A stretch of 49,576 nucleotides of DNA from Escherichia phage HK639. The notes under the pieces were generated by a model, which had not been told where the DNA came from, did not search any database, and saw only the letters and a list, made by a program, of their open reading frames with translations. The stretch's first letter is position 1. Each line of letters starts with the position of its first letter. Positions 9,065 through 47,903 of the stretch are shown one piece after another. The stretch is taken from sequence record NC_016158.1. One strand, given 5' to 3'. A program made the position numbers and the translations under genes.

Positions 9065-9997
9065 ATGGCATTCGCAATCCCTAACGGCTCGCGTGTGAAC
9101 GTGGCCAAGGCCTATCAAGCCCCAATCACCTTTACCGCAGCCTCTAACGCGACGGAATGCGAACTGACCGTTGCATCGGCCTCCGGCATTCTGGCCGGTG
9201 ACGTAGTTCAGGTGAGTTCCGGCTGGTTAAAGCTCGATAACATGGTGCTGCGCGTAAAATCGGTGACCAGTAATAAAATCGTGCTGGAAGCACTCGATAC
9301 TACCGACACCACCAAATTCCCGGCAGGCACTGGCGCGGGAACGCTGCGCAAAATCGACTCATGGATCACCATGCCTCAGGTGATGACACTATCAACTGAA
9401 GGTGGTGACCAGCAGACCATCAGTGTGCAGTTCCTCGAAGATGACAAAGCGCGAACTATCCCAACGTTTAAAAACGCGGTGGTTCAGGTTTACACCTTTG
9501 CGCATGACCCTCAACTGGCGATCTACAAACGCCTCATTGACCTGGATGACTCCAGCGATACAACGGCGGTCTGGTTCCATAACCCACGCGGCAAAGCCGA
9601 TCGTTTCTACTCAGCCAAAGTATCGTTCCAGCGCGTACCGCGCACGGAAATCAACGCCGTGGAAAGTAACGAAGCGCGTATGAACTTCGAATCGGACATG
9701 CAGATTTACCCGATCGCCGATTCATCCGTGACGCCGCTGGCGTTCCTGACCGACCTGCCGGCCACCAAATCGGTTGCCACAGGCGCAGCGCTGGATCTGG
9801 CGGTGGTAATGAAGGGCGGCTCAGCACCTTACACCTACGTATGGAAGAAAGGCAGCACCGCTATTCCGGGCAAAACCGCATCGACGTTCAACATTTCGTC
9901 TGTCGCATCCGGTGATGCTGGCGTTTACACCTGTGAAGTCACCGACGCCGCGGGAAAAACCATCACCTCGGCTGCGTGTACTGTCACGGTCAGCTAA
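9065..9997 (+). CDS. major tail (tube) protein with C-terminal Ig-like domain
   Basis: 310 aa; RBS AGGAGA; C-terminal ~90 aa Ig-like segment (YTYVWKKGSTAIPGKTASTFNISSVASGDAGVYTCEVTDAAG); followed by terminator. Confidence 0.75.
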   Translation: MAFAIPNGSRVNVAKAYQAPITFTAASNATECELTVASASGILAGDVVQVSSGWLKLDNMVLRVKSVTSNKIVLEALDTTDTTKFPAGTGAGTLRKIDSWITMPQVMTLSTEGGDQQTISVQFLEDDKARTIPTFKNAVVQVYTFAHDPQLAIYKRLIDLDDSSDTTAVWFHNPRGKADRFYSAKVSFQRVPRTEINAVESNEARMNFESDMQIYPIADSSVTPLAFLTDLPATKSVATGAALDLAVVMKGGSAPYTYVWKKGSTAIPGKTASTFNISSVASGDAGVYTCEVTDAAGKTITSAACTVTVS

Positions 9998-10003
9998 CCA
10001 CTC

Positions 10004-10027
10004 GGGCCCGGTACGCCGGGCTTTTTT
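10004..10027 (+). terminator. rho-independent terminator after major tail gene
   Basis: CCCGG-TACG-CCGGG hairpin plus TTTTTT. Confidence 0.6.
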
Positions 10028-10140
10028 ATGCGCATCGCACGCGCACATCGAAGAAAGTCTTTCAGCTGTGAGCCTGGGCAAACCGTTAACTTTCGGCGGA
10101 TTTGCCGTGCGACAGGCTCACGTCTAAAAGGAAATGAGAA
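10015..10140 (+). promoter_or_regulatory. conserved leader element, copy A (duplicated at 47237..47378)
   Basis: About 130 nt alignable to the region upstream of the Rha gene: shared GGGCTTTTTTATGCGCATC-CACGCGCA, CTTTCAG, GAGCCTG...CAGGCTCAC inverted repeat and TCTAAAAGG immediately before ATGAAT. Confidence 0.6.
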
Positions 10141-43767: not shown

Positions 43768-44265
43768 ATGAAACTGGAATTAACCAACGACCAACATCAA
43801 TGGGTAGACCAGTGGCTCCAGTTGTGGGGCGCATGGTGCCAGACCGGCAAGATTGATAAAGCGATGATCAACATGATTGCCAGATTCATGGCTACCGTCG
43901 AGCCCCAGCAAGCATCACGGCCGGTATGTAGTGATGATGACGGAATGCTCATTGATGCTGTCATTCGCCACTACCTGAAGAATGTGGATGAAAATGCCTG
44001 GCGGGTTATCTTCGCCTACTATGTCTGCAACTCCAGCGAGATCCGAATTGCATCATGGCAGCATGCAGTAAGTAAGCCTCGCCTTATGAAGACGCGTGGC
44101 GGAAATCAGTACAAACACCCAAGCATCTCGACAATCCGTAGAGAGGTGAAGCAAATCATCAATGCTTCATTGTTCTGTTTATACCAACCGCTTCAAAATG
44201 CGTTTAACGATCGCGAAAATGTGAGGAAAGTTGCAAATAAATCACACAACGTGCTTGCAATTTAA
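43768..44265 (+). CDS. Q: late gene antiterminator Q-like protein
   Basis: 165 aa; last gene before tRNA/terminator region and lysis cassette; Cys/His residues. Confidence 0.6.
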   Translation: MKLELTNDQHQWVDQWLQLWGAWCQTGKIDKAMINMIARFMATVEPQQASRPVCSDDDGMLIDAVIRHYLKNVDENAWRVIFAYYVCNSSEIRIASWQHAVSKPRLMKTRGGNQYKHPSISTIRREVKQIINASLFCLYQPLQNAFNDRENVRKVANKSHNVLAI

Positions 44266-44362: not shown

Positions 44363-44437
44363 GGGTCAGAAGCACAGCGGTTGTGCGTTCGGCTGTTAAC
44401 CGAATGGTCGAAGGTTCGAATCCTTCCTGTCCCGCCA
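44363..44437 (+). tRNA. tRNA-Asn (anticodon GUU), phage-encoded, one U-U mismatch in acceptor stem
   Basis: Manual fold: acceptor GGGTCAG/CTGTCCC, D-stem GCAC/GTGC, anticodon stem TTCGG/CCGAA with loop CTGTTAA, T-arm GAAGG-TTCGAAT-CCTTC, discriminator G, CCA. Confidence 0.6.
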
Positions 44438-44776: not shown

Positions 44777-44806
44777 TTGACTGCAGGAATAAGTTCGGCG
44801 TAATTT
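44777..44806 (+). promoter_or_regulatory. candidate late promoter (pR'-like): TTGACT-18 bp-TAATTT
   Basis: -35 TTGACT and -10 TAATTT resemble recalled lambda pR' hexamers; about 170 nt upstream of a strong terminator. Confidence 0.35.
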
Positions 44807-44952
44807 ATTTCTGTGGTGAATCCTTTCTAAGCGAAAGGGCGTTCCAGCCAACTGCTATCTGCAGGTATGCGCGCGACTTTGCTGGCTGGAGTAGAGTCAC
44901 CGGGAGGCACCCGGCACCATGACAACAACAATACAGTTTCAAATTCCTTGAG

Positions 44953-44981
44953 AGCCTGCCGTAAAAAGCAGGCCTTTTTTT
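44953..44981 (+). terminator. rho-independent terminator (tR'-like candidate)
   Basis: GCCTGC-CGTAAAAA-GCAGGC plus TTTTTTT. Confidence 0.6.
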
Positions 44982-45136
44982 ATGAAATTGCGAACTGCTG
45001 CTACGCTTGAAAAGTGGGTTGAAGATAACTGCCTGATGGTTCTCCTGAACCATAGTGAATCAGCCTGATACTGTCTCACTCTGGTCAGTTAGCAAAACTC
45101 ACGACTACCTACCTTACTTACTAATAGTCACTCATT

Positions 45137-46786: not shown

Positions 46787-46928
46787 TACGGGCTGCCTGT
46801 GGACCCGGATTATCTATCTGACAAACCACGATATCGACGTTATGGACCGCCAGACGAAGAAAGACATCCTGGCGCATAACAAAGCGTGGCAGGCGAACTG
46901 TCAGAAACCAACAGAGAAAAAAATATGA
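46701..46928 (+). CDS. o-spanin (Rz1-like lipoprotein), overlapping i-spanin
   Basis: 75 aa; lipobox LIASC; starts inside Rz-like gene in +1 frame. Confidence 0.6.
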   Translation: MYSKLLTICLAMMLIASCAKTSPAPVVIDTGCLWTRIIYLTNHDIDVMDRQTKKDILAHNKAWQANCQKPTEKKI

Positions 46929-47206
46929 GCGAAGCTAAACCGCAGGACGGCACTACCGTTAAAGGCTATCGAACCTTATCGCCTGGTGATATTGAGCGTA
47001 TGAATCGCCTGAAGGGTGTCAGCCGACACTTCTGTAATTTACATGATACAGAACGTGAGCATGTCAACGATGAGTTATCTGCTACCGGCAACCACTCAGC
47101 TGAAGCAAACGAAGCTGCCCGCTGTCTCGCTATTGCGCGCACCAAAATGCAGGAAGCCTGCATGTGGGCATGTCGTGCCGTAGCCCGTCCAGACGCTGAC
47201 TGTTAG
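46925..47206 (+). CDS. hypothetical protein following lysis cassette
   Basis: ORF 46886..47206; ATG 46925 overlaps o-spanin stop (ATGA); 93 aa. Confidence 0.45.
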   Translation: MSEAKPQDGTTVKGYRTLSPGDIERMNRLKGVSRHFCNLHDTEREHVNDELSATGNHSAEANEAARCLAIARTKMQEACMWACRAVARPDADC

Positions 47207-47223
47207 CCAAAAAACAAACATAG

Positions 47224-47249
47224 AGCCTCGCAATAGCGGGGCTTTTTTA
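47224..47249 (+). terminator. rho-independent terminator
   Basis: GCCTCGC-AATA-GCGGGGC plus TTTTTT. Confidence 0.6.
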
Positions 47250-47378
47250 TGCGCATCTCACGCGCATCTCAACGAGAGCCTTTCAGTAAGCGAGCCTGAG
47301 AAATGCCGTTATAGGTGGCGACCTCTCTCGGGCGGCTTTTCTGTGAGACAGGCTCACTTTCTAAAAGGTAAAGACGCT
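47237..47378 (+). promoter_or_regulatory. conserved leader element, copy B (paralogue of 10015..10140)
   Basis: Alignable to copy A; contains direct repeat GCGCATCTCA x2 and inverted repeat GAGCCTG...CAGGCTCAC; ends TTCTAAAAGG before ATGAAT. Confidence 0.6.
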
Positions 47379-47903
47379 ATGAATAATCCGTCAGTTATTC
47401 CGGCCTTTGACTTCCGAGAAATGGTGCAAGCCAAAAACGGAGAGGTCGTTACCACATCCCGAAAAGTTGCCACGTACTTCGGAAAGCGACATGGTGATGT
47501 GCTCAGGAAAATCGAGCAGGTTAAGGCCGATTGCTCAAGTGAGTTTAGCCAACGCAATTTTGCGTCGGCCGATTATATCGATGAGCAGGGTAAGGTTCGC
47601 CCGATGTATAGCCTGACGAAAGATGGCTGGATCATGGTTGTGATGGGGTTCACCGGGAAAGCTGCTGCGGCTATCAAAGAAAGCTACATTTCAGCTTTCA
47701 ATTGGATGTCTGAGCAACTTAGCCGTCGCCTGGCCATGGGTGAAGAAATGCAGCACCGCTACGCCATCAAAGAAACGCGCTCAAAGTTGAAGGGCACGAT
47801 CGGCAGCCGGTTGATGAACGAGCGGAAGAAAGAGAAACGTGTTCTGGCTGTGGAGCATGAGCACATCATGCAGGTAACGCAGCCTGAATTGCTGATCGAA
47901 TAA
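47379..47903 (+). CDS. rha: Rha-family phage regulatory protein
   Basis: ORF 47343..47903 with start at Met13; N-terminal VVTTSRKVATYFGKRHGDVLRKIEQ signature of Rha domain. Confidence 0.7.
   Translation: MNNPSVIPAFDFREMVQAKNGEVVTTSRKVATYFGKRHGDVLRKIEQVKADCSSEFSQRNFASADYIDEQGKVRPMYSLTKDGWIMVVMGFTGKAAAAIKESYISAFNWMSEQLSRRLAMGEEMQHRYAIKETRSKLKGTIGSRLMNERKKEKRVLAVEHEHIMQVTQPELLIE

Follow-up and report, generated by a model that had tools for sequence, protein, structure and literature searches.

Comparative evidence for an apparently undescribed structured leader RNA upstream of accessory genes in Escherichia phage HK639 and other temperate enterobacterial phages

Introduction

Escherichia phage HK639 (NC_016158.1; 49,576 nucleotides, the whole of which is referred to here as the window) is a complete lambdoid phage genome with its late-direction genes on the + strand. 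Here we describe an element of ~115-135 nt that occurs twice in the window, directly before a Rha-family gene (copy B) and directly before a gene inserted among the tail genes (copy A). Comparative evidence strongly supports the element as a real, apparently undescribed structured RNA family, in which two long-range pairings covary and the Shine-Dalgarno (SD) sequence of the following gene, the cargo, lies within a covarying helix. An earlier note, made from the sequence of the window, had proposed that the interval 47224-47378 holds the second copy of a duplicated leader element, and this proved correct, as the two copies have 78% column identity when aligned and match one covariance model at 116 and 112 bits. 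The way in which the leader acts is something that we infer; the feature itself is real and has strong comparative support.

The leader at the Rha gene and its second copy

The locus upstream of the Rha gene, with the parts of copy B, is as follows.

47224-47248, + strand: terminator-like hairpin AGCCTCGC/AATA/GCGGGGCT (47224-47243) with a six-T run (47243-47248), read from the sequence, directly 5' of copy B
47249-47381, + strand: copy B of the leader, ending at the Rha ATG (47379-47381); covariance model E 2e-30
47250-47266, + strand: hairpin P1, with arms TGCGC (47250-47254) and GCGCA (47262-47266) and a 7-nt loop (47255-47261), from the minimum free energy (MFE) fold and the alignment
47256-47261, + strand: 5' strand of the long-range pairing PK1, UCUCAC, in the P1 loop; pairs with 47343-47348
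47273-47278, + strand: 5' strand of the long-range pairing PK2, CGAGAG, in the purine linker adjoining the anti-SD arm; pairs with 47325-47330
47279-47369, + strand: long hairpin P2-P5, MFE -46.8 kcal/mol, z -2.5
47279-47283 with 47364-47368, and 47285-47286 with 47361-47362, + strand: basal helix P2, CCUUU with AAAGG and AG with CU
47292-47298 with 47349-47355, + strand: helix P3, GAGCCUG with CAGGCUC
Within 47279-47369, + strand: upper stems P4/P5 and a small apical hairpin
47325-47330, + strand: 3' strand of PK2, CUCUCG, at the 3' end of the apical loop, adjoining the GGCGGC arm
47343-47348, + strand: 3' strand of PK1, the 6-nt bulge GUGAGA between P4 and P3 on the 3' side
47364-47369, + strand: SD sequence AAAGGU, the 3' arm of P2, 9 nt 5' of the ATG
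47379-47903, + strand: Rha-family gene, 174 aa, the copy B cargo (Pfam PF09669, Phage_pRha, E 5e-28)

The interval named in the earlier note therefore spans two items, the terminator-like hairpin and the leader running to the Rha ATG, and its description of a leader-type element that follows a terminator and directly precedes a cargo gene holds at 47224-47381, as does its assignment of that gene to the Rha family. The hairpin at 47224-47248 was not flagged by a consensus terminator scan; weak partial Rfam matches to the terminator ends of RsmY, isrJ and STnc100 map to it. On the 3' side of the Rha gene there is only a hairpin, with no adjoining T-run. The corresponding parts of copy A are listed below.

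10004-10027, + strand: terminator-like hairpin with T-run, flagged by the scan, between the tail tube gene and copy A
10028-10143, + strand: copy A of the leader, from the covariance model (E 3e-29), the fold and the sequence
10029-10045, + strand: P1, with the loop sequence UCGCAC at 10035-10040 (fold and sequence)
10053-10058, + strand: 5' strand of PK2, GAAAGU
10058-10131, + strand: P2-P5 (fold and sequence)
10089-10094, + strand: 3' strand of PK2, ACUUUC
10107-10112, + strand: bulge GUGCGA (fold and sequence)
10127-10131, + strand: SD sequence AAAGG
10141-10143, + strand: cargo ATG
10141-10821, + strand: copy A cargo gene, 226 aa, a segment like the lambda J tail-tip fibre (Pfam PF09327, E 2e-9; phrog_29765)

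Built from 22 diverse relatives, the covariance model gives full-length matches at these two + strand sites of the 49.6-kb window and nowhere else; everything else scores at or below 24 bits and the reverse strands at or below 23 bits.

Each copy is predicted to fold into the 5-bp hairpin P1, with its 7-nt loop, followed by the long irregular hairpin P2-P5. Pairs were counted in a model-based alignment of 100 matches (72 distinct sequences), where 94.3% of cells over the whole structure hold standard pairs and 28 of the 39 pairs have changed on both sides. P1 is paired in 91.5% of cells, with both-side changes in 3/5 pairs; the basal helix P2 in 98.6%, with compensatory changes in 5/5 pairs; and the long hairpin as a whole (helices 3-6, of which P2 is helix 3) in 92-100%, with compensatory changes in 20/28 pairs. 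None of 500 shuffles reached the observed values of pairing and covariation, and sliding the partner by 1-3 columns lowered pairing to 29-50%. Frequent U-G pairs (columns 36-150, 75-103 and 76-102) would become A-C mismatches if read on the other strand, and thus the structured strand is that of the mRNA. These counts come from a structure specified by hand, a covariance model and the alignments made with it, which replaced RNAalifold on a plain MAFFT alignment; the latter gave a wrong and poor consensus because MAFFT had misaligned the arms.

The earlier note had also drawn attention to a perfect direct repeat, GCGCATCTCA twice, after the terminator T-run. The repeat is present (47251-47260 and 47262-47271, with one C between) but is incidental and unconserved in relatives. 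Its first copy is the 5' arm and loop of P1 and its second the 3' arm and first linker bases, so that it arises because the P1 loop and the first linker bases coincide in copy B; relatives have TATTA, CATCA or others in place of the second TCTCA but keep the inverted repeat TGCGC...GCGCA.

A leader peptide was considered and rejected. Copy A holds a 38-codon open reading frame (ORF) that starts at an ATG in the P1 box and ends at a TGA that shares bases with the cargo ATG (ATGA; 10028-10144). The start codon is CCG, CTG, ACG, CAG or TTG in relatives, and is thus not conserved, so that we treat the frame as a chance ORF; the ORF of copy B stops early.

Two long-range pairings

PK1 joins the loop of P1 to the bulge between P4 and P3. 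It is paired in 98.3% of cells, with compensatory changes in 5/6 pairs, and the exact reverse complement of the bulge is found upstream, in the P1 loop, in 113 of 117 elements, the exceptions being truncated or decayed. At least 11 matched versions occur: UCGCAC/GUGCGA, UCUCAC/GUGAGA, UCACAC/GUGUGA, UCCCAC/GUGGGA, UCGUAC/GUACGA, UCGCAU/AUGCGA, CGCUC/GAGCG, CGCCC/GGGCG, CCGCA/UGCGG, CUGACAU/AUGUCAG and UUGUAC/GUGCGA (the last with two G-U pairs). Each of the four Watson-Crick pairs is represented at position 3, and the three commonest versions are found on three different P3 backbones.

PK2 joins the purine-rich linker after P1, just 5' of the anti-SD arm, to the 3' end of the apical loop. The linker and loop strands are GAAAGU/ACUUUC in copy A, CGAGAG/CUCUCG in copy B, CACAGAA/UUCUGUG in VT2-Sakai and, at three further loci carrying the element (loci are labelled with L-numbers), CGAUA/UAUCG (L092), CCCUAAG/CUUAGGG (L135) and CCACAGAG/CUCUGUGG (L078). 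At least five contiguous pairs are formed in 131 of 139 distinct matches, and the mean contiguous run is 6.1 with an element's own partner vs 4.2 with a swapped partner, a mean that none of 5000 permutations reached. The family is otherwise mosaic, yet mismatched PK1/PK2 chimeras are very rare (L177, L007 and L156 only), which argues for selection on the pairing.

By helix-length arithmetic PK2, P5 and P4 together would make up ~17-20 layers and P2 with P3 ~19. These near-equal lengths are compatible with a model in which two helical stacks lie side by side and are connected at either end, one hinge being the site of the bulge and P1.

The ribosome-binding site

The ATG follows 9-12 nt after the SD sequence, and P2 still pairs in variants whose SD has diverged (L041 and L147:4363). 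An SD sequence within a conserved, covarying helix and pseudoknots supported by covariation, here PK1 and PK2, are two of the three features that mark the pseudoknotted translational operators, or SD-sequestering leaders, a class defined by function rather than homology; the element has both, the third feature being an effect of the structure on translation of the gene behind it. The design predicted by the fold is that of a weak, A/U-rich SD helix on a rigid, doubly braced scaffold.

In partition functions calculated with ViennaRNA, which ignore pseudoknots, the SD bases are predicted to be at least 71-99% paired from 25 to 45 °C. For copy B the predicted pairing at 37 °C is at least 89% for A47364 and above 99% for the other four bases, and at 45 °C at least 79% and at least 97.6%, respectively. 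We therefore rejected an RNA thermometer of the fourU or ROSE type, with release at ~30-42 °C, as unlikely, since the core SD bases stay 90-99% paired over 25-45 °C in this prediction without pseudoknots. A partner acting in trans from the same phage was also sought: the window holds no further copies of the P1 box, the arm and SD motifs give only scattered one-mismatch 9-mer matches with no pattern, and the duplex energy of the window's STnc100-like RNA with the leaders is no better than that of shuffles, although such global folding of duplexes between long RNAs has little power as a test.

Spread of the element and its absence from catalogues

The possibility, raised in the earlier note, that the element might occur in this genome only is contradicted by searches of related phages, since it is found in hundreds of them with its covarying structure and its association with cargo genes kept. 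A blastn search of a phage collection found it in 253 records and scans of IMG/VR with two patterns found at least 120 loci each, so that chance is excluded. The carriers in the phage collection include phi80 (5' of rha and 5' of ORF x171.28), HK620 (hkbK, KilA-N), HK106 and epsilon34 (GIY-YIG), SPN3UB, many Stx1/Stx2 (Shiga toxin) phages and phages of Salmonella, Klebsiella, Enterobacter, Citrobacter, Hafnia, Pantoea and Cronobacter. Among 5426 complete E. coli genomes, 953 (~1/6) match a copy B query and 226 a copy A query.

No annotated RNA feature lies under the element among the E. coli matches listed. When the window was scanned against Rfam 15 at gathering thresholds, only the tRNA and the STnc100 RNA passed, neither of them at the element. 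At permissive E-values the best scores for copies A and B were 12-19 bits against thresholds of 37-86, and fell on the terminator or the A-rich SD; elements of the Stx-phage type and at eight other loci gave no family match either. The families covered by this test include C4 antisense RNA, isrK, isrJ, pistol, twister, hatchet, RNA thermometers and riboswitches. The element is absent from the E. coli K-12 cryptic prophages DLP12, Qin and Rac, and K-12 data sets are therefore uninformative about it. Full-text literature searches found no description of it.

Two side observations concern the records themselves. Three that are labelled with non-enterobacterial hosts, PP818812.1 (Actinobacillus), MH178096.1 (Aeromonas) and OM284015.1 (Elizabethkingia), contain copies with 78-96% identity to the E. 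coli type, which may point to mislabelled hosts or contaminating coliphages. Decayed or truncated copies were also seen (L012:1623-1729, L130:1169-1296, L156:10145-10259, L183:1616-1728, L177:8383-8495 and L136:1071-1158), with defects such as an exchanged 5' part, a missing bulge, a PK1 mismatch or the loss of the 3' arm.

Cargo genes, upstream context and copy number

At least 53 different cargo N-termini stand directly behind the element. By family search the cargo includes Rha, KilA-N proteins (some with an ORF11CD3 domain), HNH and GIY-YIG/T5orf172 nucleases, a 485-aa GT2-like protein and tail-tip-like proteins; membrane proteins also occur, and record annotation adds Ant, in the VT2-Sakai ant cassette between R and Rz. 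Many type-A cargo proteins (that of copy A and those of L001, which is phi80, L024, L054, L078, L056, L080 and others) have a common J-like segment (PF09327) behind unrelated N-terminal halves. Their C-terminus is conserved as ...RESDLF..LQ..I.AQ....GLQQA......A..NALKPGGLLY.R, and the phi80 homologue is ORF x171.28.

A terminator-like hairpin with a T-run stands just 5' of the element in 127 of 157 distinct contexts (~80%), and in the remainder the element comes directly after a stop codon. In terminator-less contexts (L018, L007, L025, L040, L067, L032, L097 and L160) it often starts no more than ~10 nt after the stop of a small gene, whose product ends in ...SELSDELTN(I/T)(A/T)YE.SW. A consensus scan of 46800-47600 and 9700-10400 found no sigma-70-like promoter on either strand near either copy of the window. 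A promoter inside the element was likewise rejected, as there is no consensus match and the -10-like TATAAT or TATTAA of some relatives is not conserved.

Two or three copies are present in the genomes of phi80, L018, L078, L110, L134, L135 and L147. On the - strand of locus L147 (3375-5450), three tandem leader-cargo cassettes, ~950 bp apart, directly follow an Rz-like gene, and each has its own PK1 (UCUCAC, CCGCA and UCACAC). Co-resident copies, compared by eye, mostly differ in PK1, PK2 or both, as in the window, L001, L018, L019/L020, L078, L095, L110, L111 and L149/L150. In L134 and L135 PK1 is common to the co-resident copies and PK2 differs, and L128/L129 are identical copies on a 96-kb contig that may hold two prophages. 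There are hints here of selection against cross-pairing between co-resident copies, in a comparison made by eye and confounded by lineage.

Genome setting

The genes and RNAs that flank the two cassettes are listed here.

9065-9997, + strand: tail tube gene (Pfam PF08813), 5' of copy A
10850-10873, + strand: terminator-like hairpin CCCGC/TACG/GCGGG with T-run, read from the sequence, closing the copy A cassette
10887-11225, + strand: tail assembly chaperone gene (PF08748), 3' of the copy A cassette
43768-44265, + strand: Q antiterminator gene (PF06530)
44363-44434, + strand: tRNA (Rfam match, 64 bits), between the Q gene and holin
44780-44985, + strand: STnc100-type RNA (Rfam, 52.6 bits vs a threshold of 47), between the Q gene and holin
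46925-47206, + strand: gene of 93 aa with the Acb2/Tad1 hairpin domain (PF24729, E 2e-17), directly 5' of the copy B terminator

The order on the + strand is thus Q, the tRNA and STnc100 RNA, the lysis genes, the Acb2/Tad1-hairpin gene, the terminator with copy B, and Rha, with the terminase, head and tail genes at the left end of the window. In lambdoid phages the interval between the Q gene and holin gives rise to the short pR'-tR' RNA. The 93-aa Acb2/Tad1 protein, placed in the late operon behind the lysis genes, is likely to be an anti-CBASS/Thoeris nucleotide sponge. The copy A cargo gene is an insertion among the tail genes, with the tail tube gene on its 5' side and the tail assembly chaperone gene on its 3' side.

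From the order of Q, lysis genes and Rha, and from the position of both copies on the + strand, we infer that the two belong to one late transcription unit, ~12 kb apart via the junction of the genome ends. The earlier note had placed their cargo genes at opposite ends of the genome, which is an artefact of the linear map, as both copies lie in the direction of late transcription. Its suggestion that the two genes are co-regulated can be kept as far as a common type of control is concerned. However, this pair is not singled out, given the many other cargo genes behind the same leader, and both pairing codes differ between the copies (UCGCAC/GUGCGA with GAAAGU/ACUUUC in A; UCUCAC/GUGAGA with CGAGAG/CUCUCG in B).

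Proposed mechanism and alternative explanations

We consider it somewhat probable that the element works as a self-contained and portable 5' leader RNA, controlling translation of accessory ('moron') genes in the late operon of temperate enterobacterial phages. The upstream terminator would keep the cassette silent except under RNA polymerase that has been modified by Q and made resistant to terminators, so that cargo production would be confined to late lytic growth. The scaffold, braced by PK1 and PK2, would then hold the ribosome-binding site in a defined and mostly closed helix, and the closed fold would limit and standardise translation of the cargo whatever the flanking sequence. Limited translation would suit cargo that is often harmful, such as anti-repressor-like proteins and nucleases, in an operon that is very strongly transcribed.

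Several points weigh against this proposal. The cost of opening positions -18 to +10 is 9.2 kcal/mol for Rha and 4.5 kcal/mol for the copy A cargo, in a nested model without PK1 and PK2, and these costs are middle to low among the genes of the window, so that P2 by itself would be no unusually strong lock. Repression of translation by the leader is deduced from the pairing and from nothing else. The high sequence conservation of P3 could come in part from recent horizontal spread. That PK2 and P2 form at the same time is argued from helix lengths, and they could instead alternate, as in a switch. Finally, transcription of phi80 rha is said, in work attributed to Henthorn and Friedman in 1995, to depend on IHF status, which the leader model does not explain.

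The last but one of these points leads to the possibility of a conformational switch (riboswitch-like, protein-responsive or kinetic), in which PK2 and P2 would be mutually exclusive and a ligand, a protein or the order of folding during transcription would determine whether the SD sequence is free. On a scaffold that is rigid elsewhere, P2 is weak and A/U-rich; the 5' strand of PK2 runs into the anti-SD arm with no spacer (in copy A they have U10058 in common), and a pair of covarying long-range contacts is what switch aptamers typically show. We nevertheless regard a switch as quite unlikely, because nearly all nucleotides are helical, leaving few conserved unpaired positions for a ligand pocket, the functions of the cargo are too diverse for a metabolite signal, the matching helix lengths let all helices coexist and no riboswitch family of Rfam matches. 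A wider conjecture, which we hold to be unlikely though a little less so, is that of an active switch or catalytic RNA whose reciprocal pairings serve as 'address codes', matched within a copy and diversified between copies, so that co-transcribed or co-resident cassettes fold or respond independently. Cutting of the hairpin by RNase III or another host RNase, with release of the cargo mRNA from the long late transcript and exposure or stabilisation of its ribosome-binding site, after the manner of the lambda N leader or the intercistronic sites of T7, is in our estimation rather improbable. Such a processing site might be expected from the long helix with its asymmetric 3' bulge in the fold, from the repetition of the element between genes of one polycistronic phage transcript and from the three tandem cassettes of L147, but the bulge is engaged in PK1, and the fixed coupling of P2 to the SD, together with covariation, speaks for control of initiation rather than for cutting alone.

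The remaining explanations appear far weaker. An element acting as DNA with no RNA function, either a recombination joint or a single-stranded DNA structure that moves cargo cassettes (attC-like or a modular linker), would account for mosaic boundaries exactly at the 5' edge of P1 and at the ATG, for the tandem cassettes of L147 and for very high identity between unrelated flanks. We think it very improbable, given the strand-specific U-G pairs, the SD sequence in a covarying helix at a fixed distance from the start codon and the lack of a dedicated recombinase linked to the element; the rarity of mismatched PK1/PK2 chimeras also points to selection on pairing, not on sequence identity. Passive homologous exchange within the element is likely as a side effect. 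An integron attC-type cassette site was rejected because the element lies 5' of the ORF and contains an SD sequence, whereas an attC site is an imperfect palindrome at the 3' end of cassettes that an integron integrase recognises, and the U-G pairs favour an RNA reading; an integron-type integrase was not searched for. By analogy, a new class of self-cleaving ribozyme that insulates the cargo mRNA might be proposed, since twister, pistol and hatchet are likewise compact, phage-borne and multi-copy, with long-range pairings and no single gene association, and the pairing of the P1 loop with an internal loop recalls pistol. In pistol, however, the partner lies on the opposite strand of the internal loop, and with few invariant unpaired nucleotides for a catalytic core and no match to an Rfam ribozyme family we would give a ribozyme hardly any credence. 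Scarcely more can be said for a promoter of the cargo, or for an antisense small RNA gene on the minus strand over the cargo ribosome-binding site, like sar for P22 ant. Anti-repressor genes are classically under antisense RNA control, the predicted fold of the minus strand is good too (copy B, z -4.8) and T-rich minus-strand sequence follows the upstream terminator of copy B. Against these stand the U-G pairs, which favour the + strand, the scores at or below 23 bits on the reverse strand, the missing minus-strand T-run in copy A and, for antisense gene and promoter alike, the lack of a sigma-70-like promoter on either strand of both copies and of conservation in the -10-like hexamers of relatives.

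Significance

Whichever way the leader acts, a large structured RNA family appears to have gone uncatalogued despite its presence in the model phages phi80 and HK620 and in Shiga-toxin phages. It provides a handle on how accessory genes within an essential late operon escape harmful or wrong expression. As the element precedes genes of the anti-repressor type (Rha, Ant, KilA-N) and nucleases, it also bears on prophage induction and on conflict between phages. Its compact, modular fold enclosing a ribosome-binding site could be of interest to RNA structural biology and, as a natural insulator in the 5'-untranslated region, to synthetic biology.

Comparison with known systems

Among known leaders, those of the E. 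coli alpha (S4) operon, with its double pseudoknot, of T4 gene 32 and of S15 are pseudoknotted, contain the ribosome-binding site and bind the product of their own operon. The element is like them in being a pseudoknotted leader that contains the ribosome-binding site; unlike them it has a topology of two reciprocal loop-to-strand pairings, and in sequence it is unrelated to them. Moreover, its cargo is unrelated from case to case and thus its control cannot be autogenous. In the c4-ant system of P1/P7 and the sar-ant system of P22, whose targets are genes of the anti-repressor type, short matched complements diverge between related phages, and in the element too the complementary sequences vary between relatives yet stay matched. 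Here, in contrast, one leader contains both partners on the same strand, ~60-90 nt apart, and there is no small RNA gene apart from it; the C4 family of Rfam gives no match, and the cargo extends beyond anti-repressors.

Conserved irregular hairpins also occur in long phage transcripts at the RNase III sites of T7 and in the lambda N leader, where the hairpin occludes the ribosome-binding site. The element resembles these as an irregular hairpin repeated between genes of a long phage transcript, and differs in that its bulge is held in a pseudoknot and two long-range pairings are added. In HK97 and HK022 a moron is an extra gene between neighbouring core genes, with its own promoter and terminator. 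The copy A cargo is moron-like, lying between the tail tube (PF08813) and chaperone (PF08748) genes with a terminator at its end, but unlike a classical moron it has a terminator and a structured leader in place of its own sigma-70 promoter, as far as a consensus scan can tell.

The IsrK/orf45-anrP leader of the Salmonella prophage Gifsy-1 is a conserved structured RNA that follows a terminator and precedes an anti-repressor gene, in a transcript from downstream of Q (PMC4825925). Its read-through mRNA is translationally inactive by default, with the ribosome-binding site paired, and in isrK-orf45 the nucleotide sequence is conserved and a possible peptide sequence is not (PMC4825925). IsrK acts via a short trans RNA and a coupled upstream ORF, and orf45, which is functional in Gifsy-1, has the same ATGA overlap as the leader ORF of copy A (PMC4825925). 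The two leaders are not homologous: a search of the whole Gifsy-1 genome with model R1 gave no match at E up to 10, the isrK region has no common motifs and the Rfam isrK family has no match in the window. They also differ in that no trans RNA was found for the phage element in the window and the chance ORF of copy A is unconserved. In logic, nonetheless, the Gifsy-1 IsrK leader is the nearest of the known systems to the element described here, with a terminator before it, an anti-repressor gene after it and translation that is off by default.

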